A stretch of DNA of 62,932 bases, counting the filler. It is 5 parts of 5 records of this genome, joined end to end, with 100 filler letters (N's around TTAATTAATTAA, not from the genome) between each part and the next. Parts side by side here need not be neighbours in the genome. Positions count along the whole stretch, not along the records: positions 43,797 to 62,932 come from SRR31156797_107; 4 more parts are not named here. The stretch is one strand, 5' to 3'. The translations under genes were made by a program, and so were the position numbers. Every line of letters starts with the position of its first letter. The stretch's first letter is position 1. This document shows, piece after piece, positions 35,056 to 61,324 of this stretch. The notes under the pieces are model-generated. The model worked only from the letters and a program-made list of their open reading frames with translations, searched no databases and had not been told where the DNA came from.

Positions 35056-35060
35056 TTTGT

Positions 35061-35858: not shown

Positions 35859-35859
35859 A

Positions 35860-36963: not shown

Positions 36964-36964
36964 C

Positions 36965-37064
36965 NNNNNNNNNNNNNNNNNNNNNNNNNNNNNNNNNNNN
37001 NNNNNNNNTTAATTAATTAANNNNNNNNNNNNNNNNNNNNNNNNNNNNNNNNNNNNNNNNNNNN
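36965..37064. other. Artificial contig linker
   Basis: N44-TTAATTAATTAA-N44. Confidence 0.98.
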
Positions 37065-43696: not shown

Positions 43697-43796
43697 NNNN
43701 NNNNNNNNNNNNNNNNNNNNNNNNNNNNNNNNNNNNNNNNTTAATTAATTAANNNNNNNNNNNNNNNNNNNNNNNNNNNNNNNNNNNNNNNNNNNN
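43697..43796. other. Artificial contig linker
   Basis: N44-TTAATTAATTAA-N44. Confidence 0.98.
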
Positions 43797-45461
43797 GGGC
43801 AGGGTCAGCATGATCATGGGGATGATATTCATGACCATCCCTAAAATCAGGTAAAGAACCAGGATCAGGACGAAAAGTACATAACGGGAGACATTCAGAC
43901 CCTCCAGAAAACCGGCCAGTTCCATGGGAATCTGGGTGAGGGTGACAAAATTCCCCAGGATGGTCACCCCGATGAGGATGGTCAGGATCATGGTGGACAT
44001 TTCAATGCCCCCGATCAACGCCTCCAAAAGCCCTTTCCAGGAAAACTCCTTGGACAGGGCGGCGATGACGAGAGCGCCGATGGCGCCGACCCCTCCCGCC
44101 TCCGTGGGGGTCACAAGGCCCGAGTAGATGCCCCCGATGACCACGCAGAAGAGCAGAAACACCTGCCACACATCTTTGAGGGATGCGATCTTCTCCGAAA
44201 GGGTTGATGGGGCTGCCGCGGGCCCCAGGTTCGGGTTCATTCGGCATCGGATGTAGACCGTGACGGCAAAGAGTACCATGAGCAGAAAACCGGGGATCAT
44301 GCCGGCCATGAAGAGCTGGCCCACGGACTGTTCGGTGATGATGCCGTAGGCGATGAACCCGATACTGGGGGGGATCAAAATGCCTAAGGTTCCGCCTGCC
44401 GCCACCGATCCGGTGGCCAGTGCGTCGTCGTAATGATATTTCTTCATTTCGGGAAGGGAGACGGAACTCATGGTGGCGGCCGTGGCCATGCTGTCTCCGC
44501 AGATGGCCGCGAAACCGCCGCACCCGAGAACCGTGCCCACGGCCAGCCCCCCCGGCATCTGACCGAACCAGGCGTGAGATGCCTTGTAAAGGGAACGGCT
44601 GACCCCCGCCTTGAGGCACAGAAGCCCCATAAGAATAAAAAACGGCACGACGCAAAGATAATACTCGCTCACGGAGTCATAGACGGAAATTCCGAGGGCG
44701 CCCATGGAAATTTTGAATCCCGTCAGGTACCAGAGGCCCAAAACCCCCGTCAGCCCCATGGAAAATGCGATGGGGAAGCCGAGCATCATCATGACCAGCA
44801 TGAGGAGCAGGAAAAGGAGGCCCGTGGTCATGCTGCCGAGCTTGATTGCGCCCAGTTTCAGCAGTACCGGAAAAATGAGAACGACTATGGAAACGGCCAG
44901 GATGGCCGAAAACCATAGCCATGGGTTCTTCTCGTTTTTCAGAATCTTACCGATATAGTTCAGCAGGTCTTCAAGGAGTACAAGGGTAATCAAAGCACAG
45001 CCGAAAGCGGCTATGAAATAGAAGGGATAGATGGGAATCTGGGTAACGCCCGCAGCCGATCCGTTTCCGAAAGCGTCCACGGTCCGAACCGCCAGCCGCC
45101 AGCTGATGAGAAAAAATAGAAAGGCGCCGAAAATTGAAAAAACCGCCCCGAAAAAAGTCTTTGTTTTGGGCGAAAACCGGCTGGTGACCAGATCAATGGC
45201 CACATGGCGCCGCCGGATCATGGTCTGCGCCAGACTCAGAAAGGTAATCACCACCAAAAGGAAGGTTTCATATTCCAGGATACCGGCCATGGGGCGGTTG
45301 AACCCCAGCCGCAGAATCAGGTCCAGAATGATCACGGCCGCCATGAACAGAGAAAGGACGGCGCTCAAATAACCGAGATATTTACTGATGGGGTGGATGA
45401 ACCGCTTCAAACCGGATGCCATGGACGCTAGAATATCGCCTACTCTGATGGCGCTTGACAT
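43797..45461 (-). CDS. TRAP transporter fused small and large permease (DctQM), 3' truncated
   Basis: DctQ HVAIDL; DctM VPFFILMG, AAGGTLGILIPPS, TPTEAG. Confidence 0.92.
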
Positions 45462-45526
45462 TTCACCTCCCGTTTATTGCCTTTTGTTCAAAGGTCGGAT
45501 TTTTCTTAGTCAAATGAGACTGCGGA

Positions 45527-46609
45527 TCACTGATTTGAAAGCCCACGCACCAATAAACGCTCCTGCCCCCATTCGATGAGATTTTTGGCGACCTCATCCC
45601 GGTCCGATTCGGCTCTTGCCGCCAGTTCGATCGCTTCGGAAGGGCATGTTATGACGCACACCCCGCAACCGATACAACGGTCGGGGGAAACACGGAAATT
45701 TTCATCCTCTTCAATGATTGCGTCCACGGGGCATCGTTCGTCACGGCATGTGCCGCAGGAAACGCAGCTGTCCGCATCGATAACCGCCACATATGGACTT
45801 CTGGCCAGGATGTAGGGCGCCTTGAATTCCTTCATGCTACGCAAGAGACCACAACAACAGGAGCAGCAATTGCAGATGAATCCGCCGATGGCTTCCTCCA
45901 CATTGTATGTGTTATGAACCAGGCCTTCTTTCTCGGTTTCATCGATTATTAATAACGCCTCTTCTTTGGTAATAATATCCCCGTCCAGATTAAAATAGTC
46001 GTAGGCGCCTTCCTCCATGGAATATTGAAGGCAATTTTTTAACGTATGCTCGCAACGATTTCCAAGAAGGCCCTGCTCCCTTCGGCAAATACAATCCTGC
46101 ACCCTGAATGAGTTCGCCTTCTTAATAATCTGACGAACATCTTCGTATTGGAGTATTTGAAGGTCTGTTTTAATCCCTTGGTTGACGGGAATTACCCGGG
46201 TCACATGGGGTCGGTGGCCTCCCAGTTTTTGGCTGAGGAACGGCAGGTACTCTTCAAAGAGTTCCGCCAGTTCTTTGGTGAGCCGTTCTCTCCGCTGAAA
46301 CTCGTATATCCCCACAACGAATGGAACCGATCGATACACTTGACGGCCGGCCATTTTGGAAGTCCCGATTTGACCTTTCCTGGCCATATCATCGAGAACG
46401 GTTCGCATCTCCACCAGCGGTTTTCCCAGACGCTCGGCGATCTCTTCGGCTGTTTCCGGGTCGGACCGCATTTTTAAGGCCATCTCGGCTTCATGGGGCG
46501 AAAATATGATTTGCAATATCCGCAGTTCAACCCCGCTTTCCGTAGCGGGAAAACCGTTGGGCAATTCATCGAGCTTCTTGGCCAGAAGCGTATAAATGTC
46601 TTTGTTCAT
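45527..46609 (-). CDS. Multi-cluster 4Fe-4S binding protein
   Basis: CICR, ICNCCSCCCG, CVSCGTC..RCP, CIGCGVCVITCP. Confidence 0.88.
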   Translation of the reverse strand: MNKDIYTLLAKKLDELPNGFPATESGVELRILQIIFSPHEAEMALKMRSDPETAEEIAERLGKPLVEMRTVLDDMARKGQIGTSKMAGRQVYRSVPFVVGIYEFQRRERLTKELAELFEEYLPFLSQKLGGHRPHVTRVIPVNQGIKTDLQILQYEDVRQIIKKANSFRVQDCICRREQGLLGNRCEHTLKNCLQYSMEEGAYDYFNLDGDIITKEEALLIIDETEKEGLVHNTYNVEEAIGGFICNCCSCCCGLLRSMKEFKAPYILARSPYVAVIDADSCVSCGTCRDERCPVDAIIEEDENFRVSPDRCIGCGVCVITCPSEAIELAARAESDRDEVAKNLIEWGQERLLVRGLSNQ

Positions 46610-46717
46610 GGTCCTTGCCTCTTTTGGAAACACCAAAGAAGTGCCGGCATCATCCCCGAGGATCCGCCGACACTTCCCGGATACCCTTTCCGACATCATT
46701 TTTTTAACGGCTTGTGC

Positions 46718-47797
46718 CTACTTCTGCCAGCTTTTCCCCCACCACGGAGCCGGTTTATGGGTGGCTTTCTTGACATCTTCCGCAAGGGCTTGAACCTTTT
46801 TCAGGATGGCCTCGCCGTCCACGCCCTTGGCACTCACCTGTTTGACCCAACCCTGGTAAACGGGCATGACCTTTTCTTTCCACTGCGCCTTTTGTTCCGG
46901 CGTCGGGTGATAGATGAAATCTCCCCGTTTTTTAAGGGCCCCTTCAACTTTCTGACCGTATTTGGCGAACACGTGTCCCACCAGAAGACCGATGGAAGGC
47001 GCCAGTTCTTCAAACACCTTTTGAACATCCGGCGGCAGAGATTTCCATTTGTCCAGATTCATGACGATGGGGTTCTGCCCGGCGGTAAAATTCAGCACCG
47101 TGTGGCTGTCGGTCACTTCCGTAAGACGAAAGGCCTTGAGGGCCACCCACGGGAAGGTGCAACCATCCAAAGCCCCCCGCTGAAGGCTCATGTAGAGATC
47201 CTCGATCTTGGTCATACGGGGTACGGCCCCCCATAATTTCACGCATTTAACGCTGGTGGCCGATCCGGGCCATACCTTTTTTCCAGCCAGATCCTGATAT
47301 TTTTCAATATGAACGCTTTTCATATCCAGATTGACCAGTTCGGTGGTATGAAACCCCAGAACTTTCAGCCCCCCGTATTCCTTTCTGATTTCAGGAATGG
47401 CCTGGAAAGCCCGGTAGTAAAGGTCCGCCACTTGGACGGCCGAATCGGTCATAAAGGGGAGAATAATCACCGTGGAGACGGGAAACTGGCTCTCCACGGT
47501 CCACAGGGCCATGGGCATGGCCATATCCGCCAGGCCGGTTTTCACCGCATCATAGGTCTGGGCCGCTTTTGCCAGGGTGCCGCCGGGAAACCATTTGAAT
47601 TTCACCTTTCCGTTGGTCCGTTCTTCGATGACCTTGGCGTAGGGCTCATAGGCTTCCTTGAACATGACATGTTGTGGCGGATACCAACTGGCCACCTTAA
47701 TCTCGATGACATCTTCGGCAATGGCCTGGCCTGCGATCATACCGCCAAAAATAAACCCAAACAACCCCAAAAAACATAATATTTTCTTAATGGCCAT
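46718..47797 (-). CDS. dctP: TRAP substrate-binding protein, DctP family
   Basis: Signal peptide; IEERTNGKVKF..PGGTL; LYMSLQRGALDG; MNLDKWKSLPPD. Confidence 0.9.
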   Translation of the reverse strand: MAIKKILCFLGLFGFIFGGMIAGQAIAEDVIEIKVASWYPPQHVMFKEAYEPYAKVIEERTNGKVKFKWFPGGTLAKAAQTYDAVKTGLADMAMPMALWTVESQFPVSTVIILPFMTDSAVQVADLYYRAFQAIPEIRKEYGGLKVLGFHTTELVNLDMKSVHIEKYQDLAGKKVWPGSATSVKCVKLWGAVPRMTKIEDLYMSLQRGALDGCTFPWVALKAFRLTEVTDSHTVLNFTAGQNPIVMNLDKWKSLPPDVQKVFEELAPSIGLLVGHVFAKYGQKVEGALKKRGDFIYHPTPEQKAQWKEKVMPVYQGWVKQVSAKGVDGEAILKKVQALAEDVKKATHKPAPWWGKSWQK

Positions 47798-47873
47798 GTC
47801 ATTTTCTCCTTTCATCTTCTTTAAATTTGGTTTTATGATGAGATAATCAAACCCTCGGTCCGAGGGAACGTCC

Positions 47874-48824
47874 CTAAGCCCCTCTAAATGCCTTCAGGGT
47901 TTTGATAATCCCTTTGTTTGTCCGCTCCCAGAACTCATTGGAGCCCGGCATTTCGTAATGATAAAAGCCCTTCCCGGTCTTGATTCCCAATTCGCCCTTA
48001 TTCACCTTCTTCCGAATGACTTCGGGTGGTTTATAGCCTGGATTCCCGGTTATTTCATGTAGGTACTTCAGGACATTGTATACCGTGTCCAATCCGCACA
48101 TATCAAGAAACTGTATGGGACCTACACTTGGCAACCGCAATCCGAACCCGTTTTTGACCACACTGTCCACATCCTCGGGCAAAGCAACCTTCTGTTCTAT
48201 CAGCGCCAAAGCCGCGTTGATCAGGGCAAATTGGAGATAATTATGAATAAATCCCGGCGTATCCTTACAGAATATGGGGTGCTTTCCGGTCATTTTCAAC
48301 AATTCAAATGCCAATCCCTTCGTCCCGGCAGACGTCTTTTCACCGCAGACGATTTCGACCATGGGACTCAGATGGGCCGGAATCGTCCAGTGAGCGGTTA
48401 TGGCCCTTTCAGGGGTCTTCATTTTAGCGGCTATCCGGTTGATACTCATGGAAGATGTATTGGATGCAATAATAATGTCCTTAGAGCAGAGCGCATCGCA
48501 TCTTGAAAAAACAGACTGCTTGGTCTCCATGTCTTCAGGAACGGCTTCCATAATAAAGTCTGCGTTCGAGACCGATCCTTCCCATTCCAGAGTCCGGGTG
48601 ATACGGTCTTGAGCGGTGACTGCCTCTCGTTCAGTCAGAATACCGCCTTCCACCATTTGCCGACAGTTCAGCGAGGTTTTCTTGGCCGCACGTTCGAGAG
48701 GCTTCTCCAGTATGTCCACGCCCGTCACTTCGTAACCGGACAGTGCAAACGAGAGGGCGATATCAGGACCCATTACACCCTGGCCCAGTACGGTCACCTT
48801 CCTGATATATTCAAGATCCTCCAT
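47874..48824 (-). CDS. 3-hydroxyacyl-CoA dehydrogenase family protein
   Basis: GQGVMG Rossmann motif, EAVPED, ASNTSS, HW..PA...VEIV, PGFIHN, KTGKGFY. Confidence 0.92.
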   Translation of the reverse strand: MEDLEYIRKVTVLGQGVMGPDIALSFALSGYEVTGVDILEKPLERAAKKTSLNCRQMVEGGILTEREAVTAQDRITRTLEWEGSVSNADFIMEAVPEDMETKQSVFSRCDALCSKDIIIASNTSSMSINRIAAKMKTPERAITAHWTIPAHLSPMVEIVCGEKTSAGTKGLAFELLKMTGKHPIFCKDTPGFIHNYLQFALINAALALIEQKVALPEDVDSVVKNGFGLRLPSVGPIQFLDMCGLDTVYNVLKYLHEITGNPGYKPPEVIRKKVNKGELGIKTGKGFYHYEMPGSNEFWERTNKGIIKTLKAFRGA

Positions 48825-48862
48825 TTGACATTCCTAATGAACAACGGATTTCGCGTCTGACC

Positions 48863-49747
48863 TTAACTTTTGATCCCAAGCCTTTGTTTTGCCTCATCCA
48901 CCGTGGCGATTTCCCGGCCCAGTTCACGGGCGATCCTGGCCATCCGCTCCACCAGTTGCGCATTGCTCTTGACCAATTCCCCTTTGCGGTAATAGATATT
49001 GTCTTCCATACCGGTCCGGATATTGGCCCCCTGGCACATGGCCATGATGGTGGAAGGCAACTGTTGCTTGCTGATGGTGATCACCTGCCAGGAAGACCCT
49101 TCCGGTATTACATCCACCATGTTGCTGATCATCTGGGGGCTTGCCGGCATCCCCCCCTTGATGCCCAGAACCAGGCTGTAATGGACAGGCTCCTTTAAAG
49201 CCCCCTGTCGAACCATCTCCTTTACATTCTCAATATGGCTGATGTCATAGCATTCGCATTCGACTGCAATATCCCTCTCATTGCACCTTTTGATAAATTC
49301 CATGTTCCATCTCAGGGGATTGTAAAAGGTCGTATCCGGAACATACCCGAACTGGAAGGTGCCGCAGTTGATGGTGAGCATATCCGGTTTGGGGGTGATG
49401 GTGGTCAATGCCATCCTTTCATCCTGGGTGGCCACCTCGAAAGTGCCGTCCTCCCGGTAAATACCTCCGATACCGTTGCCGATCTGCGTAATGATCGGGC
49501 ATTTGGCATTCACCGCGCTGATGACTTCATTGTAAACGTTCAAATCTCCGGTTGTTCTTCCCAGTTTATCGCGCACATGGATGTGGTGAACAGCGGCCCC
49601 GGCGTTGTAGCAGTCGTAGGCGTCCTGAGCAATTTCATCCGGCTGCTCCGGCAGGTTGGGGTTGACGCTTTTATCATGAAGCCCCCCCGTGGTAGCCACC
49701 GTAATGATCAGTTTTTCCATTCTGTCGATTTCGAGCGTTACTTTCAT
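48863..49747 (-). CDS. Beta-keto acid cleavage enzyme (DUF849/BKACE, Kce-like), copy 1
   Basis: IITVATTG..PNLPEQPDEI..AGAAVHHIHVRD..RTGMEDN..SNAQLVER. Confidence 0.92.
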   Translation of the reverse strand: MKVTLEIDRMEKLIITVATTGGLHDKSVNPNLPEQPDEIAQDAYDCYNAGAAVHHIHVRDKLGRTTGDLNVYNEVISAVNAKCPIITQIGNGIGGIYREDGTFEVATQDERMALTTITPKPDMLTINCGTFQFGYVPDTTFYNPLRWNMEFIKRCNERDIAVECECYDISHIENVKEMVRQGALKEPVHYSLVLGIKGGMPASPQMISNMVDVIPEGSSWQVITISKQQLPSTIMAMCQGANIRTGMEDNIYYRKGELVKSNAQLVERMARIARELGREIATVDEAKQRLGIKS

Positions 49748-49830
49748 TTGCAATTCTCCTTCCATTCCGGGTTGTAGCGAAATACTGTTTCCAAAAATAG
49801 ATATTTGCGACGGGTTTGCCCGACGTGTCA

Positions 49831-51738
49831 TCAATGGGTTTCAGGTACAGCCTTCAAACCCACATGTTTCCCAATAAAAATCCAAATAAGACCAAAAGCG
49901 CAGACCCCTAAAAACGCCAGCAACAAGTAATTTTCATGACAAATCAAATATGCCGTTCCCAAAGCGCCTGAAATGAAGGCCCCTAAACGCTCCACAGGAT
50001 TGAGTGGTCGGCGGAAATGCCCCACCAATCCGATGCCCAAAACCACTTGCACCAGAAACGTCAGGCAGAGGATCCAGAGACCGGTTCCAGAAATATGTGG
50101 GAATTCAAGGAGCTCGGGATTATAAACAAACACGAACGGCGTGATAAATGTGGGCCCCACAATTTTCATGGCTTCCGTACTTGTCTTGAAAAAGCTGCCC
50201 CCGGATATTTTGCAGGCAGCCAGACACCCCAGGGCCACGGGGGGGGATACGGTTGAAAAAATGGCGAAATAAAACACGAAAAAATGTGCAATCAACGCGG
50301 GGATACCCAGTTCCTGGAGAAAAGGCCCCACAGTGAGTGCCACCAGGAGATATGCCACCGGCGTGGGCAGACCCATGCCGGCGATGATGCAGATGATCAT
50401 GGTGATAACCAGGAGCAGAAAGATATTACTGGGGAGCACCATGCCGAAGTAAGTGCCCAGATTTGTAGCGATCTGGGTAATGCCGATCACCTGGGCAAAG
50501 CCGCCCACCCCGATGCCCAGCAGACTCAACAGGACCACCAGCCGAAGCCCTTCTCGTATATGGCCCGCCATTTCGCGGAGTTTAGGGCGGTATTTTTTTC
50601 CCTGGAACAGTGAGAGCACAAGGACCATCGGAATGCCGATAAGACCTGCCAGGGACGGACTGTAATAGAGCAGAAGAAGGGTCAGAACCAGACCGAAGGG
50701 GAGCAGAAAGGTGGGCAGCAGCCGGATGATGAGACGCCAGTCCACCTCCTCTTTCAGATAACCGATATTCTGAATTCTTGATGCCATCAAAATGGCGATG
50801 GTCGTGGTGGCGATATAGAGCACAGCCGGATAAACGGCGTTAAGAGCAACATCAATGTAAGGGATGTTGAGAACCGCCGCAATCATAAAGGCCGCCAGAC
50901 CCAGGATCGGAGGAACCAGTTGCCCGGATGTTGAGGAAATGGTTTCGATGGCTCCTGCCGTGGATTTTTTGAAGCCGTATTTGATCATCATGGGGATGGT
51001 GAGCTGTCCCGTGAGGGCGATGTTGGCGACCGCCTGTCCCATGACGGCTCCCACCGCCGTGCTCCCCATGATGGCCGGAAAGGCGGCCCCGCCTCTGACA
51101 TTTTTTCCAAAGGCTTTGCCAAGCTCCATCAAGAGAGAAAGCAGTCCCACCCCCAGCAGAAAGGTCGCAAAGAGTACCAAAAAATAAATCTTATCCGTCA
51201 GCAGGCCGATGAACCTGAAAAAGCCTTCCGTGGCATTCATCCCCAGATAGCTGATCACAAAGGAGGTACTGTACGGGGGATGCGCCAGAATCTTGATGGG
51301 TATTAAGTGGCCCCAGAGGAAGTATGAGATGGAAACCCCGATGATGGCGCCGAAGAGCCAGCCCCAGTGGACGGTAATGAGAAAAACGATGATGCCCACG
51401 AGAAGCCATCCAATGAATATGTCCAGATCCGTAATAAAAGGCTGCACCATTTGAAGTCTGTCGGCATTGACGGCGATATAGACGGTAACGCAAATGGAAA
51501 CGGCCAGCACGACCCAGGCCAAAAGGATTCTGAATGCACCGCCCAAAGAGGGCCCTGCCTCTCTTTTTTTCACGGAATTTCCGAGATGATCCACCGCGCT
51601 GATGACCACCACAAATGCCAGAAAGGTGGCGTAAAATATGGAAACGTCCTGAAAAAGATACAGCACGGAAATCCCCACATACACGGTGAGTACGATGGTC
51701 ATCACCAAAGAGATTTTTTCCAGCATGGCGGACATCAT
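49831..51738 (-). CDS. TAXI-type TRAP fused permease (4TM/12TM)
   Basis: GAIETISSTSGQLVPPILG; GMGLPT..AY; HFFVFYF..VSPPVA. Confidence 0.9.
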   Translation of the reverse strand: MMSAMLEKISLVMTIVLTVYVGISVLYLFQDVSIFYATFLAFVVVISAVDHLGNSVKKREAGPSLGGAFRILLAWVVLAVSICVTVYIAVNADRLQMVQPFITDLDIFIGWLLVGIIVFLITVHWGWLFGAIIGVSISYFLWGHLIPIKILAHPPYSTSFVISYLGMNATEGFFRFIGLLTDKIYFLVLFATFLLGVGLLSLLMELGKAFGKNVRGGAAFPAIMGSTAVGAVMGQAVANIALTGQLTIPMMIKYGFKKSTAGAIETISSTSGQLVPPILGLAAFMIAAVLNIPYIDVALNAVYPAVLYIATTTIAILMASRIQNIGYLKEEVDWRLIIRLLPTFLLPFGLVLTLLLLYYSPSLAGLIGIPMVLVLSLFQGKKYRPKLREMAGHIREGLRLVVLLSLLGIGVGGFAQVIGITQIATNLGTYFGMVLPSNIFLLLVITMIICIIAGMGLPTPVAYLLVALTVGPFLQELGIPALIAHFFVFYFAIFSTVSPPVALGCLAACKISGGSFFKTSTEAMKIVGPTFITPFVFVYNPELLEFPHISGTGLWILCLTFLVQVVLGIGLVGHFRRPLNPVERLGAFISGALGTAYLICHENYLLLAFLGVCAFGLIWIFIGKHVGLKAVPETH

Positions 51739-51852
51739 GCATTTCCTTTCGAACGGCTTTAAAAAAAAACTTTTAGAACCGAGTGTTGATCGGTTGAATC
51801 CCCAACTGATTCCAAACCTCCATCCCCCAGGATTCAATCAATGGTCATCCGC

Positions 51853-52947
51853 CTATTTCGGCATAATGAAAGGGGGGTAATCCTTTCGTTTGTCCCATAC
51901 GCCCAATTCCTTGAGGGCGCGGATAGCGCCGGGATGGGCATTTTCCTCGGTCAGACCGGATACCATCCCATCCAGATTCCAAACATATTTCCATACGGCA
52001 TGGTATTCCCTGATCTGGGGGACCGTCTTGGCCACCGCCATCACGTATCGATAGGCAAGGTCTTCCGGGAGACTTGGATGACAGGCAACAAAAACACGAT
52101 CGGCCCCTACGGTCAATTCGCCTGCCTGGTCTTTCAAACTACCCGCCGGAATCTTTTCCGCCTGGTACGTGGTGCCGTATTTCCCATTGATCTTCTCGAT
52201 GGCCCATGGATCAATGGAGATATAGTGCAACTTCCGGCCCGAAGCCTTGAGCTTGAGGTATACACTGGATGGAAGCCATTTTTTTGCGCCAGGCGCATTC
52301 CCCGCCACCATCCCCATACAAATGGCATCCACCTTCCCATCCAGAAGCGAGTCCGTCATTTTAGCGGGCCCAAGATAGAACAGCTTACTGTTCTTACGGT
52401 TGATGCCGTAGGCCACATTCAGGAACAGGGTCGCGTCCATGCCCCAATCCGACTGGGTTCTCAGCCCCAGGCCCACCTTCTTACCTTTAAGATCGGCAAT
52501 GGTTTTTATGGAAGGATCAAAGGTGATGTACCACATTCCCTGGGACGCGATTCCCTCGGACCAGAGCATTTTCCAGGCAATGGGAATCTTTACGGGCAAA
52601 AATTCCTTGAGCTCGGGCGTACCGCCGGCCACATAAGCCAGGGTAATGATGGTTTCTTCGGTGCCGAACACCGTATTCTTCCACCTTGCCTTGTTTTGCC
52701 CCATTTCCCTGATATTGTATAGGAAACCAGGCGTTTCCTGAGGCCTCAAAATAAACCCCCATTGATCGGCCTTTGCAATAAAATTGCCAAGGATGGTAAA
52801 CGCCATAAGGCTGCCATGGCCCATGGGTGCCTCCAGTTGGGTCAGAACATCCAGTTTTGGACCGGCGGTTGTTGTTCCCGGAAACATTGAAAGGCAAAAA
52901 AAGCCGAACAACAAAAAAGCCCCCATTTTTTTCATCCTGGAAATCAT
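51853..52947 (-). CDS. TAXI-family TRAP solute-binding protein
   Basis: Signal peptide; QETPG..NI; IKTIADLKGKKV; LLDGKVDA; HPGAIRALKELG. Confidence 0.88.
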   Translation of the reverse strand: MISRMKKMGAFLLFGFFCLSMFPGTTTAGPKLDVLTQLEAPMGHGSLMAFTILGNFIAKADQWGFILRPQETPGFLYNIREMGQNKARWKNTVFGTEETIITLAYVAGGTPELKEFLPVKIPIAWKMLWSEGIASQGMWYITFDPSIKTIADLKGKKVGLGLRTQSDWGMDATLFLNVAYGINRKNSKLFYLGPAKMTDSLLDGKVDAICMGMVAGNAPGAKKWLPSSVYLKLKASGRKLHYISIDPWAIEKINGKYGTTYQAEKIPAGSLKDQAGELTVGADRVFVACHPSLPEDLAYRYVMAVAKTVPQIREYHAVWKYVWNLDGMVSGLTEENAHPGAIRALKELGVWDKRKDYPPFIMPK

Positions 52948-53038
52948 GTCATCTCCTCCTAGTTTATCAGACGGTGGTTTGAGTTTGTTGGTCAATCTAT
53001 TCCTGAATTCCGGATCTTCCGGGCAGAACCCCGGTCTT

Positions 53039-53875
53039 TTACACCTCCTTCCTCTTCGCTAAATCCAAAATAACCCTGGCCTCATGGGGTGAAGCGATTT
53101 CCCGGCCGTATTCCTTAGCGATTCGAACGATACGTTCCACAAACTGGGCATTGCTCCTGGCCAGGATGCCCCGTTCGTAATACAGGTTGTCCTCCATGCC
53201 GAGCCTTATGTGCCCGCCCATGATAAGGGCCATCATGGACATGGGCAGGTGGAATCGGCCCATGCCGGTCACGGACCAGATGCTCCCTTCCGGTATCATT
53301 TCGGTCAGGTGCAGCAGGGATTTGGGCGTTGCCACGGCGCCGGAGGGCGTGCCCAGCACAAACTGGAAATATAGGGGGTCTGCTAATTTTCCCGCGGTTT
53401 TCATGGCAAGGGCGGTGGTGATCATACCCGAGTCGAAGACCTCTATTTCCGGCTTTACCGAAAGTCGTTCCATTTCGCGAGCGGCCAGATCCAGGAAATC
53501 CGGAGGATTGATGAAAACCCCGCCCCCCAGATTGATGGAACCGGCGTCAAAGGAAGCCATATCAGGCTTCAGTTCCAGAGACTTGAGACGGTCTTCCATG
53601 GGAAGATTCCTGCCGGCGATGCCGCTTGTGGTGAGGTTTACGATCACATCGGTCTTCTCCCGCAACGGTTCCACCACCTGTCTGAAAAGTTCCGGGTCCT
53701 GGGCCCCCAGGCCCGTCTCGGGATCCCGAACATGAATGTGCACCACGGCGGCCCCCGCCCTCCAGCATTCGATGGAAGACTGGACGATCTCTTCCGGCGT
53801 GTAGGGGATGTACGGGGCAATATCCCGCAGATTCCGGCTTCCGGTAATGGCGGCGTTAATGATTAATTTTTTCAT
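53039..53875 (-). CDS. Beta-keto acid cleavage enzyme (DUF849/BKACE), copy 2
   Basis: IINAAITG..IPYTPEEI..AGAAVVHIHVRD..KPEIEVFD..RLGMEDN. Confidence 0.92.
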   Translation of the reverse strand: MKKLIINAAITGSRNLRDIAPYIPYTPEEIVQSSIECWRAGAAVVHIHVRDPETGLGAQDPELFRQVVEPLREKTDVIVNLTTSGIAGRNLPMEDRLKSLELKPDMASFDAGSINLGGGVFINPPDFLDLAAREMERLSVKPEIEVFDSGMITTALAMKTAGKLADPLYFQFVLGTPSGAVATPKSLLHLTEMIPEGSIWSVTGMGRFHLPMSMMALIMGGHIRLGMEDNLYYERGILARSNAQFVERIVRIAKEYGREIASPHEARVILDLAKRKEV

Positions 53876-53935
53876 ATGTGGTCCCATCCCTTATCGAGGC
53901 CCCCTGAATGGGGTTGCCCTATTTTTTGTTTCGGC

Positions 53936-55381
53936 TCATCGCAATTCAAGGAAAAAATCGTCTTTTTGGATCTGAACCCTTGCCCCGTCTTTCCGCCCGG
54001 AAAGCTCCCGGATCAACGAGAGGATCGGCTTGTCTCCCCTGGGATAATCGTATTTTCCGGGCCCGGCAGCCAATACGTCATTTAACGCTTCCTGGTTGGA
54101 ACTCAATACCCTGAGAAGAAAGTCCTCATCGGAAAGGTCACTTCCAAATTCCCGGCGTAGCGCTTCAATGGATTTTTGAGGGGGTTCCCAATGCTCCAAT
54201 TCCTTTGCGCGGGGCATTTTCAGGATTTTATCCAGAACCGATTTTTCCACGGGCGCCGCCAGTTCGCCGTAGTGACCCAGAACATACTTGATGATCTCGT
54301 CGGTGACAATCCCGTACCGTTCTCCCCCGGTCTGGTTCAATATGGCCTGGGCCCCGATGTACTGGGAAAGGGGGGTCACCATAATGGGGAATCCCAACTC
54401 CTTTCGAATTTGAGCGATTTCCCCGAGCAGGGCATTCAGTTTGCCTTCAAGTCCCCTTCGGGTCAGCTCCGCCCTGTAGTTGCTCATCATACCGCCGGGA
54501 ACCTGATGCTCATATTGAAAAAGATCGTATTCCACGGGCGTGCCCTTGGGAAACCCCTCTCTTTGGGCGATATACCGAAAATGTTCGCTCATGTTTTTCA
54601 ACGCCTTTTCATCCATGTCGCTTGAAAACCCCATATGTCCAAGATTTTTAAGGATGTTTTCCGCGGACGGCTGGGACGGGCCGTTGGCCAGAGGGGAAAC
54701 CGCGGTGTGTACAATGGTGACGCCGAGCTTTACGGCTTCCAGATAGCAGATGGGGGATAGTCCGGTGGTGCAGTGGCCATGAATTTCAAGGGGGATCCCA
54801 TCAATTTTTTTGAGGACGGCCGGAACCAGGGTGCGGGTCCGCTCGGGGGTCAGCAGACCATCCACATCTTTGATGAAGATTCTGTCAGCCCCGGCCAATG
54901 CCATCTGTTTCGCTTTTTTTGCATAGTATTCGTCCGTATGGACCGGGCTGTAGGAGTAGATCAAGGCCACCATGGTGGTCAGACCAGCTGATTTCGACCA
55001 ATTGATGGCTTTTTTAATTTCTGCCATATCATGGCACGGATCATTGATCCGGATCAGTCCGGCCCCTGCTTTCGCCACGGTTTTGGCCCAGAATTCCGTC
55101 ACGGAATCGGGGATGTTTCCAAAATTCCGGAGCACGCCCCCCACGATAAGGGGTGTATTGGGCATGGCTTCGGACATGAGATGCAACCGTTCCCAGGGGT
55201 TTTCCCCCTGGTTTCGGATACACCAGTCCATGCTGATGAGAGCCATGAAGTCAAGGGCCTCAAATCCCACCTGATCTATGACAGGTGCGATGGGAAGCAT
55301 CATGGCCGTGGTCATTTGCCCATTCCAAAGACTCTGGTGGGCGTCCCTCAGTGTGGTGTCCACAAAGGCGATTTTGTTCAT
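53936..55381 (-). CDS. PycB/OadA-type carboxyltransferase subunit without biotinyl domain
   Basis: DTTLRDAHQSL, ENPWERL, IKDVDGLL, HGHCTTG, HQVPGGM, MVTPLSQ. Confidence 0.9.
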   Translation of the reverse strand: MNKIAFVDTTLRDAHQSLWNGQMTTAMMLPIAPVIDQVGFEALDFMALISMDWCIRNQGENPWERLHLMSEAMPNTPLIVGGVLRNFGNIPDSVTEFWAKTVAKAGAGLIRINDPCHDMAEIKKAINWSKSAGLTTMVALIYSYSPVHTDEYYAKKAKQMALAGADRIFIKDVDGLLTPERTRTLVPAVLKKIDGIPLEIHGHCTTGLSPICYLEAVKLGVTIVHTAVSPLANGPSQPSAENILKNLGHMGFSSDMDEKALKNMSEHFRYIAQREGFPKGTPVEYDLFQYEHQVPGGMMSNYRAELTRRGLEGKLNALLGEIAQIRKELGFPIMVTPLSQYIGAQAILNQTGGERYGIVTDEIIKYVLGHYGELAAPVEKSVLDKILKMPRAKELEHWEPPQKSIEALRREFGSDLSDEDFLLRVLSSNQEALNDVLAAGPGKYDYPRGDKPILSLIRELSGRKDGARVQIQKDDFFLELR

Positions 55382-56745
55382 GAGGTGCCGTCTCCTTGTT
55401 CACATAAGACCGTTTCCAGCCAACGTGTGTTGGTCTGTCCGCTCTTGAAATCGGGATGATTCATAATGCCTGAAAGAAATTCGATGTTGGTATCAATGCC
55501 GGTCACATGGAAATTGGAAAGGGCATGGGTCATCTTGGAGATGGTTTCTTCGCGGGTTTCCCCAACCACAATGAGTTTTCCCAGAAGAGAATCGTAATAG
55601 GGGGGCACAAGGTATCCTTCAAAACCATGGGTGTCCACCCGGATATCTTTTCCTCCGGGAACGACCCATTCCTTGATCCTCCCCGGAGAGGGTCTGAAGT
55701 CAGCCTCGGGGCACTCCGCATTGATACGGCACTCCATGGCATGCCCCGTTACTTGAATGTCGTCTTGATGGAATTGAAACCTTTCGCCGGCAGCCATTCG
55801 GATCTGTTCCGCCACCAGATCCACCCCGGTAATCATTTCCGTGACCGGGTGTTCCACCTGGATGCGCGTGTTCATTTCAAGGAAGTAGAATTTTTCCTCA
55901 TCCAGGTCCAGTACAAATTCAACGGTCCCGGCCGTTTTGTAACCGATGGATTGGGCGATGCGAACGGCGGCGCCGCACATCCGTTCCCTCATTTCCATTG
56001 AAACGGCGGTGGACGGCGCTTCTTCGATCACTTTTTGATAACGACGTTGAAGGGAACAATCCCGTTCAAACAGATGAACACAATGACCGTAACAATCCGC
56101 CATAATCTGCACCTCAATATGCCGGGCATTGGGAATGAAACGTTCCATGTAAAGCCGATCATCCCCAAATGCGGCTCTTGCTTCGGCGGACGCTTCTCTG
56201 AATACGGTTTCCATTTCCTCAGGCTTGTAAACCCTTTTCATCCCTTTTCCACCCCCTCCTGCGGCAGCCTTGAGCAGTATGGGAAATCCGATTTTTTCCG
56301 CCTCACGCCGGCCCTGCGCCAGGTCGGCAATCAATGGGGATCCGGGGATCAAGGGAATATCCAGATCCATGGCGGTATTTCGGGCTACCAGTTTGTCTCC
56401 CATTTGTCGAATGCTGTCGGGAGCGGGACCGATAAATGTCAAGCCGTTTCGGGCGCACCCTTCCCCCAGTTCGGGCTGTTCCGCCAGGAAACCATATCCG
56501 GGATGGATGGCATCGACCTCCGTCCCCAGCGCCGCCATAAGGATGGTATCCACATTCAGATAGCTTTTGAGGGGTTGGGGAGGGCCGATGCAGACGGCTC
56601 CGTCGGTCATTTGGGCCGCCAGGGTATCACGGTCCGCCTCTGACATGGCCAGCACTGTTTCGATTCCCAGTTTCCGGCAGGCCTTGATGATACGGACCGC
56701 GATTTCACCCCGATTGGCCACCAGAACCCGTGATATGGCTGCCAT
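55378..56745 (-). CDS. accC: Biotin carboxylase
   Basis: LVANRGEIA, HPGYGFLAE, GGGGKGM, RDCSLQRR.QK, FLEMNTRIQVEH. Confidence 0.95.
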   Translation of the reverse strand: MAAISRVLVANRGEIAVRIIKACRKLGIETVLAMSEADRDTLAAQMTDGAVCIGPPQPLKSYLNVDTILMAALGTEVDAIHPGYGFLAEQPELGEGCARNGLTFIGPAPDSIRQMGDKLVARNTAMDLDIPLIPGSPLIADLAQGRREAEKIGFPILLKAAAGGGGKGMKRVYKPEEMETVFREASAEARAAFGDDRLYMERFIPNARHIEVQIMADCYGHCVHLFERDCSLQRRYQKVIEEAPSTAVSMEMRERMCGAAVRIAQSIGYKTAGTVEFVLDLDEEKFYFLEMNTRIQVEHPVTEMITGVDLVAEQIRMAAGERFQFHQDDIQVTGHAMECRINAECPEADFRPSPGRIKEWVVPGGKDIRVDTHGFEGYLVPPYYDSLLGKLIVVGETREETISKMTHALSNFHVTGIDTNIEFLSGIMNHPDFKSGQTNTRWLETVLCEQGDGTS

Positions 56746-56750
56746 GGTTT

Positions 56751-57278
56751 TCAGCGCGCCTCCTTATCCGTTGGTTCAATCAGGAAAAGAACCTGGTTGT
56801 ACTCCACCAGTTGGCCATCGTCCGCGCAAATTCTGGCGATGCGGCCCCGTATACCCGCATGGATGGTGCTGAAAAGCTTCATCACTTCTATGATGCAGAC
56901 CGTGGTATCCTCGTCGACAATCTGATCCGGCTCCACAAAAGAAGGGTCCCCCGGTTTGGGAGACCTGTAGAAGGTGCCCAGCATGGGGGACCGGATGGGA
57001 ATAAGCCCTTCTATTTCAGTTACTACATCCTTAATGCCGTCATCTTTTTTTAGAACGTCATTTTCCGGGGGAAGGTCGCGCTGAACCGTTTTTTCGCCGT
57101 TTTTGGGCACGGCGGTTTGTGCCGGGGTCCATAAATCCGGTTCGCCCTCTGAAAGGTCGGAAATACCTCGTTTGTTCACAACGAGCTTGAGTTCACCCAT
57201 TTCGAGATGAAGCTGCTCATAGTGAGACTCATCCATGATTTTTAAAATCCGTAGAACATCTTCCTGAGTTAAATCCAT
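56751..57278 (-). CDS. accB: Biotin carboxyl carrier protein
   Basis: SPMLGTFYRSP..CIIEVMKL (biotinylated Lys); ATG 57278 lies downstream of the sigma54 promoter. Confidence 0.92.
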   Translation of the reverse strand: MDLTQEDVLRILKIMDESHYEQLHLEMGELKLVVNKRGISDLSEGEPDLWTPAQTAVPKNGEKTVQRDLPPENDVLKKDDGIKDVVTEIEGLIPIRSPMLGTFYRSPKPGDPSFVEPDQIVDEDTTVCIIEVMKLFSTIHAGIRGRIARICADDGQLVEYNQVLFLIEPTDKEAR

Positions 57279-57356
57279 AATTATCACCTGAAATCCATGT
57301 TGGTTGTAAACCCGAAATTGCGCTGTGGCTGGTGCAAAGCCAGATGCCATTCCAAC

Positions 57357-57372
57357 AGCAAGGAGTGTGCCA
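57357..57372 (-). promoter_or_regulatory. sigma54 -24/-12 promoter of the catabolic operon
   Basis: TGGCACACTCCTTGCT, GG-N10-GC. Confidence 0.85.
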
Positions 57373-57434
57373 TACATATAAAATAAAATGATTTCAGATG
57401 GTTGTTGAAAAATTATAAAAACGGTCATGGGAAA

Positions 57435-57604
57435 TGTCCTTTTTTTGGACATATTTCATGGAAAAGAGTGCTCAAACTTTGGACACCGGTCCATTTGATA
57501 GGTTGTTTCATACCCTATTTACCCCTAACCGGACCGTATGACGGTTTAAAACGCCCCTGCTTTGTTTGACACATGCCCAGGGAATGGTGTACAAATGTTG
57601 GACA
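57435..57604. promoter_or_regulatory. Three 17-bp activator sites, consensus TGTCCA-N5-TGGACA
   Basis: TGTCCTTTTTTTGGACA 57435-57451; TGCTCAAACTTTGGACA 57469-57485; TGTACAAATGTTGGACA 57588-57604. Confidence 0.75.
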
Positions 57605-57638
57605 GCGCATGGAAAAGGGGTTACCCGGGAGAATTATC

Positions 57639-59078
57639 ATGGGAAATAACGCAAGGGGACGGTTGAAGGAAATGGCTTCGGAAAAACATGTTCTGGATCT
57701 GGAAAATGCTGATAAATTTCTGCCGGTTCTGGAACTTATGCTGGATGAGGCGTACCTTGGCATTGTCTTCGTGGACCCCGATGGCGTCATCCGGTTCATG
57801 AATCGACAATACGAGGAGTTAATCGGTGTGGATCGCACGCAAACTTATGGAAAGCATATCACGGAATATTTCCCCGATTCCCGGCTTCCCATCGTGATTC
57901 GAACCAGGAAAGCCGAGCTGGGCTGGAAATACAATTACCGGGGAAGGGGCACATTGGTGGTGAACCGGATTCCCATCACCAAGGGTAACAAATTCATCGG
58001 CGCCATGACCCAGTGCATATTTCGGGATATTTCGGAACTGCGCGAAATGGCTCTCAAGTTGGATCTGTTGGAAACAAAGGTTCAAACCTACAAAAGGGCC
58101 GCCAGCGATTTGCTAACTCCGAAATACAACATTGACGATATCAAAGGGAACAGCCGGTCCATTGTGGACCTGAAGAACATGGCCCTCATGTATGCGCCCA
58201 CCGACAGTGCCGTCCTGATCACGGGAGAAACCGGAGCGGGCAAGGAGTTGTTTGCCCATGCCATTCATCATGCCGGCAACCGCAACGAAGGTCCTTTTGT
58301 GTGCGTTAACTGCGCTTCCATACCGGATGCGTTGCTGGAATCTGAACTCTTTGGATATGCGCCCGGAGCTTTTACCGGCGCCCAAAAAAAAGGTAAAATC
58401 GGGAAAATTGAACTGTCCCATGGCGGGACCCTTTTCCTCGATGAAATCGGCGAATTGCCTTTCAAAGCCCAGGCCAAGCTGTTGCGGGTTCTGGAGGAAA
58501 AGAGGGTGGAGAAAATCGGCGAAGTCCTCCCCTCCGAAATCGATTTCAGGCTCATTGCCGCCACCAATAGACCCCTTGATTTTCTCAAAAACCAGAAAAA
58601 TTTTCGCCAGGACCTTTTTCATCGGCTGTCGGCCATTTCCATCAGTATTCCATCTCTGAGAGAAAGGGTCGAGGATATTCCGCTCCTGGTTGAACATTTT
58701 CTTCAAAGAGGTCCCGGCCGTGGCATGAAAATAACGGAGAAAGCCATCCACGAAATGATGCGGTATGCCTGGCCGGGAAATGTGAGGGAGTTGCGGAACG
58801 CACTGGAGTTGGCCGTGTGCGTAGCCCAAAACGGGGATGCCATTGACGTGGATCATTTGCCGGGACATATCCATGCCTCAAAGGCCGAAACCCGGTCTAA
58901 AGAAGAGACTCAGGACCTGCATATGAAAGCTGAAATACGGACGAACGAAATTCAATTGATCAAAAACGCCCTGGGCAGTTGTGGGGGGAACAAAGTCCGG
59001 GCCGCAAAAATGTTGGGGATATCCAGATCCTCTCTATATAACAAACTCAAACGGTATGCCATACCAACGGCCCGCTAA
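57639..59078 (+). CDS. PAS-domain sigma54-dependent transcriptional activator
   Basis: PAS (GIVFVDPDG.I.FMN), GETGAGKE, ESELFGYAPGAFTGA, WPGNVREL, Fis HTH; divergent from the operon. Confidence 0.93.
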   Translation: MGNNARGRLKEMASEKHVLDLENADKFLPVLELMLDEAYLGIVFVDPDGVIRFMNRQYEELIGVDRTQTYGKHITEYFPDSRLPIVIRTRKAELGWKYNYRGRGTLVVNRIPITKGNKFIGAMTQCIFRDISELREMALKLDLLETKVQTYKRAASDLLTPKYNIDDIKGNSRSIVDLKNMALMYAPTDSAVLITGETGAGKELFAHAIHHAGNRNEGPFVCVNCASIPDALLESELFGYAPGAFTGAQKKGKIGKIELSHGGTLFLDEIGELPFKAQAKLLRVLEEKRVEKIGEVLPSEIDFRLIAATNRPLDFLKNQKNFRQDLFHRLSAISISIPSLRERVEDIPLLVEHFLQRGPGRGMKITEKAIHEMMRYAWPGNVRELRNALELAVCVAQNGDAIDVDHLPGHIHASKAETRSKEETQDLHMKAEIRTNEIQLIKNALGSCGGNKVRAAKMLGISRSSLYNKLKRYAIPTAR

Positions 59079-60393: not shown

Positions 60394-60597
60394 ATGGCAG
60401 AACCTGAACAAATGTACCAATGCCAGACCACAAACTGCGGGTATATATATGACCCCGATCGAGGTGACCGAAAAGGAAAAGTATCCAAAGGTACGTTTTT
60501 CAACGATTTATCCGAGGATTGGAAATGCCCCGTTTGCGGCGCCGGGAAAAAAATGTTCAAGCCGCTGGCTGGACCAGGATCGGCTGCAGAAGCCTAA
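60394..60597 (+). CDS. Rubredoxin (CxxxxC variant)
   Basis: YQCQTTNCGYIYDP..DWKCPVCGA. Confidence 0.92.
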   Translation: MAEPEQMYQCQTTNCGYIYDPDRGDRKGKVSKGTFFNDLSEDWKCPVCGAGKKMFKPLAGPGSAAEA

Positions 60598-60635
60598 TCA
60601 TTTATTTTTTTTTGAATCGGAGGAGGAATACATTT

Positions 60636-61208: not shown

Positions 61209-61324
61209 AACTGTCCGCTATTTTGTATTGTTGCACATTCCGGCATCATGGGTATGGGATGGCAAAAACGATCGTGAAAAGGTTTTAGCGCATTAATCAT
61301 AACGACAACCGTAAGGAGGATGAA

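Follow-up and report, generated by a model that had tools for sequence, protein, structure and literature searches.

A putative sigma-54-controlled operon that couples a three-protein biotin-dependent carboxylase to beta-keto-acid cleavage enzymes in a sulfate-reducer-type bacterium

The stretch of DNA considered here, hereafter the window, comprises 62,932 nucleotides, filler included, and strings together five or more contigs, divided by four artificial spacers (an N run, TTAATTAATTAA and a further N run) at 17220, 25601, 37009 and 43741. The contig that begins at position 43797, the first genuine base past the last spacer, carries an operon in which a predicted biotin-dependent carboxylase is encoded directly upstream of an enzyme for beta-keto-acid cleavage (BKACE), an arrangement that recurs in every informative relative outside the Dehalococcoidia. 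The host is a bacterium of the sulfate-reducer type. The minus strand holds eleven head-to-tail genes in the order biotin carboxyl carrier protein (BCCP), biotin carboxylase (BC), carboxyltransferase (CT), BKACE1, TAXI solute-binding protein (SBP), TAXI-TRAP permease, BKACE2, 3-hydroxyacyl dehydrogenase-family enzyme (HADH1), DctP, Fe-S protein and DctQM (Table 1), with intergenic spacing that ranges from a 4-nt overlap up to 65 nt. The assignments derive from Pfam and NCBIfam profile searches of the open reading frames (ORFs) of the window, judged against curated cut-offs; five extra ORFs of at least 200 aa occur in the region, in other frames and overlapping the annotated genes. A co-oriented run of these genes behind a sigma-54 promoter had been described in the original prediction, made from the letters of the window, and is borne out by profile content, strand and promoter match. 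The region then delimited, 43797-59078, holds the gene run, but its start is a contig join at which DctQM is cut, and the activator gene at its far end is divergent and lies outside the run. As DctQM is cut at the contig end, the operon may continue past it.

Table 1. Features of the operon and its flanks, with positions counted along the whole window
Feature	Position	Strand	Evidence
Artificial spacer between joined contigs (N run, TTAATTAATTAA, N run)	43697..43796	.	sequence
Fused DctQ-DctM TRAP permease, cut by contig end	43797..45461	-	Pfam DctQ and DctM; DctM profile 1-337 of 413
Cysteine-rich protein with C-terminal 2x[4Fe-4S]	45527..46699 (likely 360 aa from 46609)	-	Pfam Fer4 over residues about 305-367
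DctP-type TRAP solute-binding protein	46718..47815	-	Pfam DctP; NF037995 107, over cut-off 50
HADH1, 3-hydroxyacyl dehydrogenase-family	47874..48824	-	Pfam 3HCDH_N and 3HCDH; under every NCBIfam cut-off
BKACE2, divergent, putative start	48863..49834	-	Pfam BKACE 304.3 bits (cut-off 24.8)
Fused TAXI-TRAP permease	49831..51837	-	TIGR02123 333.3, over cut-off 320.65; Pfam DctM
TAXI-family TRAP solute-binding protein	51853..52995	-	Pfam NMT1_3; TIGR02122 75.5, under cut-off 84.35
BKACE1, Kce-like	53039..53887	-	Pfam BKACE 323.6 bits (cut-off 24.8)
Stand-alone 5S/PycB/OadA-fold CT, 481 aa, no fused BCCP	53936..55381	-	Pfam HMGL-like (PF00682) and PYC_OADA (PF02436), over cut-offs
Biotin carboxylase (AccC/PycA type)	55378..56745	-	three Pfam BC domains; NF006367
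BCCP, AccB-like, 175 aa	56751..57278 (ORF to 57452)	-	Pfam Biotin_lipoyl; ATG at 57278
Sigma-54 -24/-12 promoter TGGCACACTCCTTGCT	57357..57372	-	exact match to TGGCAC-N5-TTGCW
Divergent sigma-54 enhancer-binding activator	57573..59078	+	Pfam: PAS sensor, AAA+ Sigma54_activat, Fis-type HTH (HTH_8); no receiver domain

The evidence that carries the link between carboxylase and BKACE comes from related loci. Genome contigs (one per species) yielded 22 loci that encode a CT at 72-81% identity to that of the window, 6 of them of Desulfobacterota type and 16 from Dehalococcoidia. In all six Desulfobacterota loci the gene directly after CT encodes a BKACE1 orthologue (63-89% identity), which seems to be split in L003, and each locus has in addition a dehydrogenase gene and genes for a TRAP or TAXI system. 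Metagenome contigs provided 28 CT loci, and BKACE1 is the next gene in 17/17 of those with a CT at 74% identity or more and with downstream DNA; six loci whose DNA runs no further than the end of the CT gene were excluded as uninformative, and some of the metagenome loci are not independent, L106 being the same contig as L002 and the pairs L098/L099 and L101/L112 being near-copies. BKACE1 thus follows CT in 23/23 informative loci outside the Dehalococcoidia (6 genome and 17 metagenome loci), over CT identities of 72-90%, in several Desulfobacterota families and in many samples. The functional link between carboxylase and BKACE that this gene order predicts is well supported. The system is rare: only two of the 401 Desulfobacterota genomes sampled (G009 and G010) carry a CT at 70% identity or more. 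It had been foreseen that the idea would fall if the carboxylase were a plain pyruvate carboxylase and had no BKACE genes beside it elsewhere; the lack of co-occurrence is ruled out by the 23/23 adjacency, and CT is non-canonical, yet pyruvate remains a live substrate, as discussed below.

Around the constant CT-BKACE1 pair the operon is flexible, and some dehydrogenase and some TRAP or TAXI transporter are always encoded nearby. BCCP is always just upstream, and BC lies between BCCP and CT or is displaced (L002, L094-L096, L098 and L099). One accessory set consists of HADH1 and the TAXI system (L001, L012, L093, L094 and L097), another of BKACE2, DctP/DctQM and a second dehydrogenase (L019, L020, L090, L098, L099 and L104), and both sets occur together in the window, L115 and L002. 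The second dehydrogenase of the relatives, HADH2, is only 30-34% identical to HADH1. A gene order that varies outside the core, with BC sometimes displaced (L094, L098, L099), is what would be expected of an operon mosaic whose neighbours share no pathway; such a reading is very improbable, given that the CT-BKACE1 adjacency is kept across the identities, families and samples just listed and that the genes are separated by short gaps behind a single promoter.

The closest long contig, L090, has a CT 90% identical to that of the window, and there DctQM is followed by a fused aconitase-X-family protein and then by the second dehydrogenase; by analogy, this contig may show what follows the cut DctQM of the window. 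The model that comes closest to this aconitase-X protein is that of cis-3-hydroxy-L-proline dehydratase (224 bits, cut-off 700). In L090 (17595-20449) it is the fused swivel-plus-catalytic form and stands after the operon, ahead of the second HADH-family gene. In L019 the aconitase-X gene (19983-21308) lies beyond the activator gene, and the second HADH gene is inside the operon.

The promoter TGGCACACTCCTTGCT is the sole exact match to TGGCAC-N5-TTGCW in the window, where 0.03 matches are expected and at least one was found in 3/100 shuffles. The probable BCCP start at 57278 is about 80 nt downstream of this site, which falls inside the longest possible BCCP ORF; the start at 57278 is preferred because the ORF that extends to 57452 would take in the promoter. 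The nearest NCBIfam model of the divergent activator is PrdR, at 429 bits against a cut-off of 795. With a -24/-12 promoter and an adjacent enhancer-binding protein both present, the operon is predicted to be sigma-54-dependent. Activator orthologues (56-86% identity) stand beside the operon in at least eight loci, namely L012, L019, L020, L090, L094, L098, L099 and L113, and a pattern search, run with no shuffle control, placed sigma-54-type boxes upstream of BCCP in 11 BKACE-linked relatives; the same kind of search, again with no shuffle control, gave no such box in the 3 Dehalococcoidia loci checked or in L108. The predicted regulation, a PAS activator acting on -24/-12 boxes, is conserved among these BKACE-linked loci.

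Two of the three carboxylase proteins are readily placed. BCCP shows the EVMKL biotinyl-lysine motif in its translation, scores 95.6 against TIGR00531, under the cut-off of 115.2, and has an orthologue upstream of BC/CT in 22/22 genome loci. BC possesses the three domains of a biotin carboxylase and scores 651.1 against NF006367, over the curated cut-off of 597, as a member of the AccC/PycA family would; its score against the accC equivalog TIGR00514, 624.8, is just under the cut-off of 626.5.

The third protein, CT, is the unusual one. It falls under the cut-off of every PycB, OadA and 5S model in NCBIfam (348.5/402 for PRK09282, then 323.8/718, 323.6/756.5, 312.7/734 and 240.5/827) and is about equidistant by sequence from OadA 2NX9 (242 bits), PycB 5KS8 (235 bits) and transcarboxylase 5S 1RQB (209 bits). 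An AlphaFold (AF2) model built on a 15-sequence alignment has a mean predicted local distance difference test (pLDDT) score of 78, and the best Foldseek matches of this model are 5ks8, 1rqh and 2nx9, with TM scores of 0.76-0.78, 29-32% identity and E about 1e-32; the modelled CT is a member of the PycB/OadA/5S fold family. A large-database search with CT recovered proteins of about 481 aa in more than 100 clusters, 54-92% identical to it and all with automatic names only, and the sources of the clade include Desulfobacteraceae, Desulfarculus, Dehalococcoidia and other Chloroflexota. No fused BCCP was found among the best 120 CT relatives (347-499 aa), in a search that admitted proteins of up to 842 aa. 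The metal ligands D13, K171, H201 and H203, together with R12 and Q16, are invariant in 15/15 clade members and align with the solved enzymes; the roles of the metal ligands (Asp, carbamylated Lys and His-x-His) and of the Arg/Gln pair of the RDxxQS motif are treated in PMC9581989 and PMC10653868.

Elsewhere in the pocket the solved enzymes and CT part company: ATR is replaced by NGQ, WGGATFD by MALISMD and LLRGQNLLGY by VGGVLRNFGN, and the replacements are nearly invariant within the clade. The arginine of the LLRGxN motif (Arg606 in Lactococcus lactis pyruvate carboxylase) is described in PMC9581989 as contacting pyruvate or oxaloacetate and as needed for activity. The aligned position in CT is V80 (V, T or A in the clade), and in the model strand beta3 (L78-V83) contains no arginine, with R85 situated two residues past it. 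An alignment of CTs recovered by motif search from 48 loci, from which sequences shorter than 470 aa were dropped, has R85-N86 in 20/20 BKACE-linked and 16/16 Dehalococcoidia CTs, and Ile-Gly at this place in the 5 CTs of a subgroup at 66-67% identity.

Comparison with the established enzymes brings out the same mixture. The two-subunit pyruvate carboxylase PycA/PycB (Methylobacillus flagellatus, 5KS8), transcarboxylase 5S and OadA resemble CT in fold (TM 0.77, about 30% identity), share with it the metal ligands and the Arg/Gln pair and, like the window, have a separate AccC-like BC subunit. Unlike PycA/PycB and OadA, the window has a separate, AccB-like BCCP and a CT in which the motifs ATR, WGGATFD and LLRGQNLLGY are replaced; its CT, unlike PycB and OadA, sits in a BKACE/TRAP operon and not with housekeeping genes, and no Na+-pump subunits were seen. 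The absence of a Na+-pump beta subunit had been pointed out at the outset, and no OadB-like gene was found in the operon or in the relatives examined. By its motifs, its curated scores and its lack of a fused BCCP or Na+-pump partner, CT would not be classed as a pyruvate carboxylase or OadA; judged by sequence, it is a separate clade and not a canonical PycB.

The C-terminus of CT (residues about 435-481; 53936-54080) is modelled as a short helix and a beta-hairpin at low pLDDT, and this segment may be a BC-docking element. By eye it resembles the N-terminal segment of the BCCP of the operon (57170-57278).

Further CT-like proteins were met in the same searches. A sister clade (L043-L048, e.g. 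L046 308-6840), 50-52% identical to CT, has the motif LIRSKSLTSFN with ATR kept, and is encoded in six Desulfobacterota genomes by DctP-DctQ-DctM-BCCP-BC-CT operons devoid of BKACE. PYC_OADA proteins of about 585 aa (L032, L034-L039, L041 and L042) are 46-48% identical to CT; in them Glu replaces the carbamylated lysine, with IEDA(S/G)G instead of IKD, and there are other pocket changes as well. Five metagenome loci (L107-L111, e.g. L108 4856-15746) have a CT at 66-67% identity that lacks R85 (GGVLIGFG) and no BKACE; the neighbours are two or three short-chain dehydrogenases (SDRs), BCCP-BC, a TRAP system, a nitroreductase and a TauE-like exporter. The GGVLRNFG family would be one of several unexplored TRAP-linked 5S-type clades in anaerobes, next to the IRSKSLTSFN, SDR-TRAP and Lys-to-Glu 585-aa forms.

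BKACE1 and BKACE2 are 37% identical to each other, and BKACE2 has an insertion after beta3. Scored against the equivalogs Kce, 3-oxoadipate BKACE and 3,5-dioxohexanoate BKACE, BKACE1 reaches 324/382, 229/350 and 215/430 (score/cut-off) and BKACE2 272/382, 167/350 and 189/430; as far as such profiles predict, both are family members that belong to none of the four curated subtypes. Their HxH and E-D-N motifs, which we take to be the zinc and catalytic ligands, align with those of Kce 2Y7D. Kce of lysine fermentation is the closest relative of BKACE1, which scores 234 bits against 2Y7D and 324 against NF052387 (equivalog cut-off 382). The two differ at the second residue after the ITG motif, a Glu in Kce, where it is presumably linked to the amino group of the substrate, and an Arg in BKACE1, and no lysine-fermentation genes lie in the operon, in agreement with the original prediction. 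The Glu-to-Arg swap was considered as a sign of an anionic substrate and dropped, for solo homologues in unrelated contexts have ITGSR too, and solved BKACEs do not agree at this position. The 18 distinct carboxylase-linked BKACE1 sequences are set apart from 28 distinct solo homologues by four fixed positions (Y29, A91, I148 and A159), in a comparison whose sequences were picked by the TGSR/HxHxR pattern and which leaves out homologues that lack it.

The remaining genes of the operon are predicted to encode import and oxidation functions. In both the TAXI and the DctPQM system a solute-binding protein and a fused membrane component are recognizable by profile, the TAXI SBP at Pfam level only. 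TRAP and TAXI systems take up carboxylates. The nearest solved binding proteins, 7nr2 at about 100 bits for DctP and a match of about 26 bits for the TAXI SBP, are too distant to offer a clue to the ligand. HADH1 is equally near to 3-hydroxybutyryl-CoA dehydrogenase (177 bits) and to the free-acid dehydrogenase 4om8 (174 bits). The Fe-S protein sits between DctP and DctQM and has orthologues 90-92% identical in L090 and L115 and 61% identical in L104; a search of Protein Atlas returned only generic names for CT and for the Fe-S protein, and no functional name for the latter.

These findings suggest a catabolic operon, governed by sigma-54 and a PAS activator, for organic acids that enter through TRAP and TAXI transporters, with an invariant core made of an ATP- and biotin-dependent three-protein carboxylase (BCCP, BC and CT) and of BKACE1 directly after it. 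The first step would be acid uptake, read from gene content. In the second, an HADH-family dehydrogenase would convert a hydroxy group to a ketone. In the third, CT would move CO2 from carboxybiotin to the carbon beside the ketone and so produce a beta-keto (di)acid, a step proposed because the enolate-stabilising and metal-binding residues of the family are conserved in CT. In the fourth, BKACE1 would combine the beta-keto acid with acetyl-CoA to give an acyl-CoA and acetoacetate, the reaction type of the BKACE family (PMC11961710). The substrate would in this way reach CoA metabolism for one ATP and with no CoA ligase. A parallel branch, formed by BKACE2, the second dehydrogenase and DctPQM (with the aconitase-X-type dehydratase in the L090 lineage), would make and cleave a 3-keto acid directly. 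Levulinate, a methyl-keto acid, serves as a balancing example and not as a result: it would be carboxylated to 3-oxoadipate, which would yield succinyl-CoA and acetoacetate. A probability not far short of even attaches to the reading in which the carboxylase turns an imported keto acid into a beta-keto acid, which BKACE1 then transforms with acetyl-CoA into acyl-CoA and acetoacetate.

The broader form of the idea, that the 481-aa 'GGVLRNFG' CTs are a new biotin-dependent keto-acid carboxylase with a substrate other than pyruvate and form with BKACE1 a new 'carboxylate, then cleave' route, is put forward more tentatively and has somewhat less than an even chance. A keto acid that is not beta-cleavable would be turned into a beta-keto diacid at the price of one ATP and then undergo a Claisen-type transfer onto acetyl-CoA. 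Carboxylation followed by cleavage had been the core of the original prediction; the carboxylase-BKACE link has stood, while the carboxylation of a keto compound stays at the level of a proposal; the Dehalococcoidia keep pyruvate in play. The remark that no CoA ligase is in view holds for the window, but in the relatives L019 and L094 there is a gene for an AMP-binding ligase a few kb upstream.

Two candidate substrates were set aside on paper balances. Acetoacetate as carboxylase substrate would give 3-oxoglutarate, which with acetyl-CoA forms malonyl-CoA and acetoacetate back, so that nothing is consumed. Oxaloacetate as BKACE1 substrate gives oxalyl-CoA, with no net gain over known pyruvate cleavage. 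ObcA of oxalate biosynthesis acts on oxaloacetate and acetyl-CoA and yields acetoacetate, so the product of a pyruvate carboxylase is chemically possible as a BKACE substrate; ObcA is a distant relative with the BKACE fold (4NNA versus BKACE1, E 8e-15, 58 bits, a very weak match), and an ObcA-like, oxalyl-CoA-forming route has no evident use in the operon of the window.

The loss of the canonical arginine position and the more hydrophobic replacements around it (VGGV, MALIS) would also suit a carboxylase acting on a neutral methyl ketone like butanone, 2-pentanone or acetophenone, the equivalent with biotin of acetone or acetophenone carboxylase, in which case BKACE1 would turn the 3-oxo acid into an acyl- or aroyl-CoA and acetoacetate and the transporters would serve the other branch. 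The chemistry fits a BKACE directly downstream, and the solved relatives of DctP, at about 100 bits, leave its ligand unconstrained. This explanation is nevertheless improbable: a TRAP or TAXI system, by family knowledge a carboxylate transporter, is found in every version of the operon, the conserved R85 suggests an anionic group on the substrate, and no alcohol dehydrogenase typical of secondary-alcohol/ketone pathways was seen.

The opposite direction of flow was considered as well. Acetoacetate is released at every BKACE turnover, and pyruvate carboxylase is reversible in vitro; given this and the gene order, CT might decarboxylate a beta-keto acid, such as acetoacetate made by BKACE, with carboxybiotin driving ATP synthesis on BC and pulling the BKACE reactions. 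We know of no precedent for such a scheme, in which the decarboxylation of a beta-keto acid on CT drives ATP synthesis on BC. To a sulfate reducer the ketone produced would mean a loss of carbon and reducing power, no computed result speaks in its favour, and it is extremely improbable.

A number of observations weigh against the proposed carboxylation of an imported keto acid, several of them from the Dehalococcoidia. All 16 loci of this class carry BCCP-BC-CT alone, and any further ORF cluster is limited to at most 4 of them. BKACE was found in 0/5 complete Dehalococcoidia genomes searched, in all five of which the CT of the trio is the only PYC_OADA gene, with coordinates that coincide with the loci, and 16/16 Dehalococcoidia CTs share the pocket motifs of the window CT, R85-N86 included. 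Phosphoenolpyruvate (PEP) carboxylase and GTP-dependent PEP carboxykinase (PEPCK) were each found in 0/5 of the genomes searched; G004 and G005 alone have malic enzyme and a strong ATP-PEPCK match, and G001 has a weak composite ATP-PEPCK match. In two to three of the five genomes the trio therefore looks like the sole candidate found for a C3-to-C4 carboxylase, as would be expected of a housekeeping pyruvate carboxylase, and since it would play this part with no BKACE at hand, pyruvate stays a live substrate. R85 might moreover replace the canonical arginine, so the argument from a lost pyruvate site could go either way. HADH1 could, by its bit scores, equally be an ordinary acyl-CoA dehydrogenase-type enzyme. 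BKACE1-like matches (E <= 1e-50) occur in 115 of the 401 Desulfobacterota genomes; such enzymes (54-71% identity) are frequent and mostly have no carboxylase linked to them, and ten further genomes have orthologues at 66-71% identity in unrelated neighbourhoods with no such carboxylase. The neighbours of these orthologues (AtuA, Glu/Leu-type dehydrogenase, aminotransferase, HAD and others) have no common theme.

In the main rival reading the trio would be a divergent three-subunit pyruvate carboxylase, co-induced only to supply oxaloacetate for anaplerosis or gluconeogenesis while imported 3-hydroxy acids pass through the dehydrogenase and BKACE to acetyl-CoA-level products, with no intermediate handed from the carboxylase to BKACE1. 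The PycB/5S/OadA fold, the metal ligands, R12 and Q16 are kept; R85 is present in the BKACE-linked and Dehalococcoidia CTs and missing from the SDR-TRAP subgroup, as expected of a substrate-binding arginine; and the trio stands alone, as the sole PYC_OADA gene, in 5/5 Dehalococcoidia genomes in which PEP carboxylase and GTP-PEPCK number 0/5 and malic enzyme and strong ATP-PEPCK matches 2/5 each. The operon-bearing Desulfobacterota genomes (5/5) possess in addition a PYC_OADA paralogue with canonical motifs (ATR, WGGATFD, LLRGQNxVGY, KDMAG), 32-33% identical to CT, and no BC gene lies beside it at the Desulfobacterota loci examined, so that it need not be the ATP-dependent carboxylase of these bacteria. 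On the other side, the 23/23 adjacency of CT and BKACE1 and their shared sigma-54 control are hard to square with anaplerosis alone, three canonical pocket motifs are replaced, among them the position of the pyruvate-binding arginine, and CT is under all the curated pyruvate carboxylase and OadA cut-offs. The presence of the canonical paralogue, like the four positions that set carboxylase-linked BKACE1 apart from solo homologues, speaks for the carboxylation of an imported keto acid. The Dehalococcoidia, for their part, carry less weight than their number suggests. In a quick maximum-likelihood tree of 49 rows (5 duplicates dropped; SH-aLRT support, midpoint root, quick search) their 16 CTs form one shallow clade (support 99) that lies within the BKACE-linked diversity (support 99); this amounts to a single event, and the BKACE link is the widespread state. 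Compared with all 20 BKACE-linked CTs, theirs also have fixed changes of their own, among them C116Y and C212Y close to the ends of barrel strands, C116 being placed by the CT model in the loop just past barrel strand beta4. The pyruvate carboxylase reading is plausible, with an appreciable share of the probability, but on balance the less likely of the two.

In one operon-bearing genome (G009) a PYC_OADA gene with canonical motifs (L121, 5110-5949) is followed by a gene for a beta-class carbonic anhydrase.

Set against known pathways, the proposed carboxylation and cleavage shares parts with several of them. In the dehydrogenase-BKACE pairs of carnitine, deoxyribonate and phloroglucinol catabolism an HADH-family dehydrogenase adjoins a BKACE, as HADH1 does in the window, and a hydroxy acid could therefore be oxidised here to a 3-keto acid and then cleaved with acetyl-CoA. 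The pair of carnitine catabolism and the reaction type of the BKACE family were reportedly described by Bastard et al. in 2014. To our knowledge, none of these three dehydrogenase-BKACE pathways includes a biotin-dependent carboxylase. Acetone and acetophenone carboxylases are biotin-independent and belong to another protein family, and their 3-oxo product is activated by a CoA ligase or transferase and not by a BKACE; they nonetheless share with the proposed route the logic of an ATP-dependent carboxylation beside a carbonyl, which leads through a beta-keto acid into CoA metabolism. The substrates of biotin carboxylases with a 5S/PycB-type CT are, as far as we know, all 2-oxo acids (pyruvate/oxaloacetate and 2-oxoglutarate). 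BKACEs have a part in deoxyribonate catabolism (10.1101/205583) and in phloroglucinol catabolism (PMC10470551).

The original prediction had stated that this combination of genes belongs to no described pathway, and a literature search turned up none. No natural pathway joining a BKACE with a biotin carboxylase was found in that search, though supplementary context tables could still hold such cases; the main text of the NetSyn preprint on BKACE contexts, for instance, does not contain the words 'carboxylase', 'biotin' or 'TRAP', and its supplementary tables may differ. The parts all come from known families, and the combination looks new as far as the literature was searched. A new class of CT substrate, if true, would widen the chemistry of an old enzyme family and would provide a defined upstream partner for the BKACEs, whose physiological roles are mostly unassigned; it would also add a low-ATP route for organic acids to anaerobic carbon cycling in sulfate-reducing sediments. 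A CT-BKACE pair is of the kind used in designed CO2-fixing cycles, one of which, in PMC11961710, is built round a BKACE reaction that is termed new to nature there. Should the trio prove to be a pyruvate carboxylase instead, it would be a three-subunit form whose substrate site has been rebuilt and, for a group of Dehalococcoidia, the sole candidate for an anaplerotic carboxylase.

Features elsewhere in the window are mentioned for completeness. Two contigs at 17232-37008 have a G+C content of 24-31%, compared with 42-54% in the rest of the window, and may derive from another organism, for example through a binning error. This low-G+C part encodes at 28639-30699 a 686-aa protein in which a KAP-family P-loop NTPase is fused to an FGE-sulfatase-like domain. 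A separate contig (37634-43445) carries genes for a TonB-dependent receptor with a Plug domain and an ABC-type substrate-binding protein, together with two ORFs that, judged from their translations alone, resemble a response-regulator-type activator and a sensor kinase. On the contig of the operon, downstream of the activator gene and unrelated to the operon, lie genes for rubrerythrin and desulfoferrodoxin (60519-61699), oxidative-stress genes typical of anaerobes.

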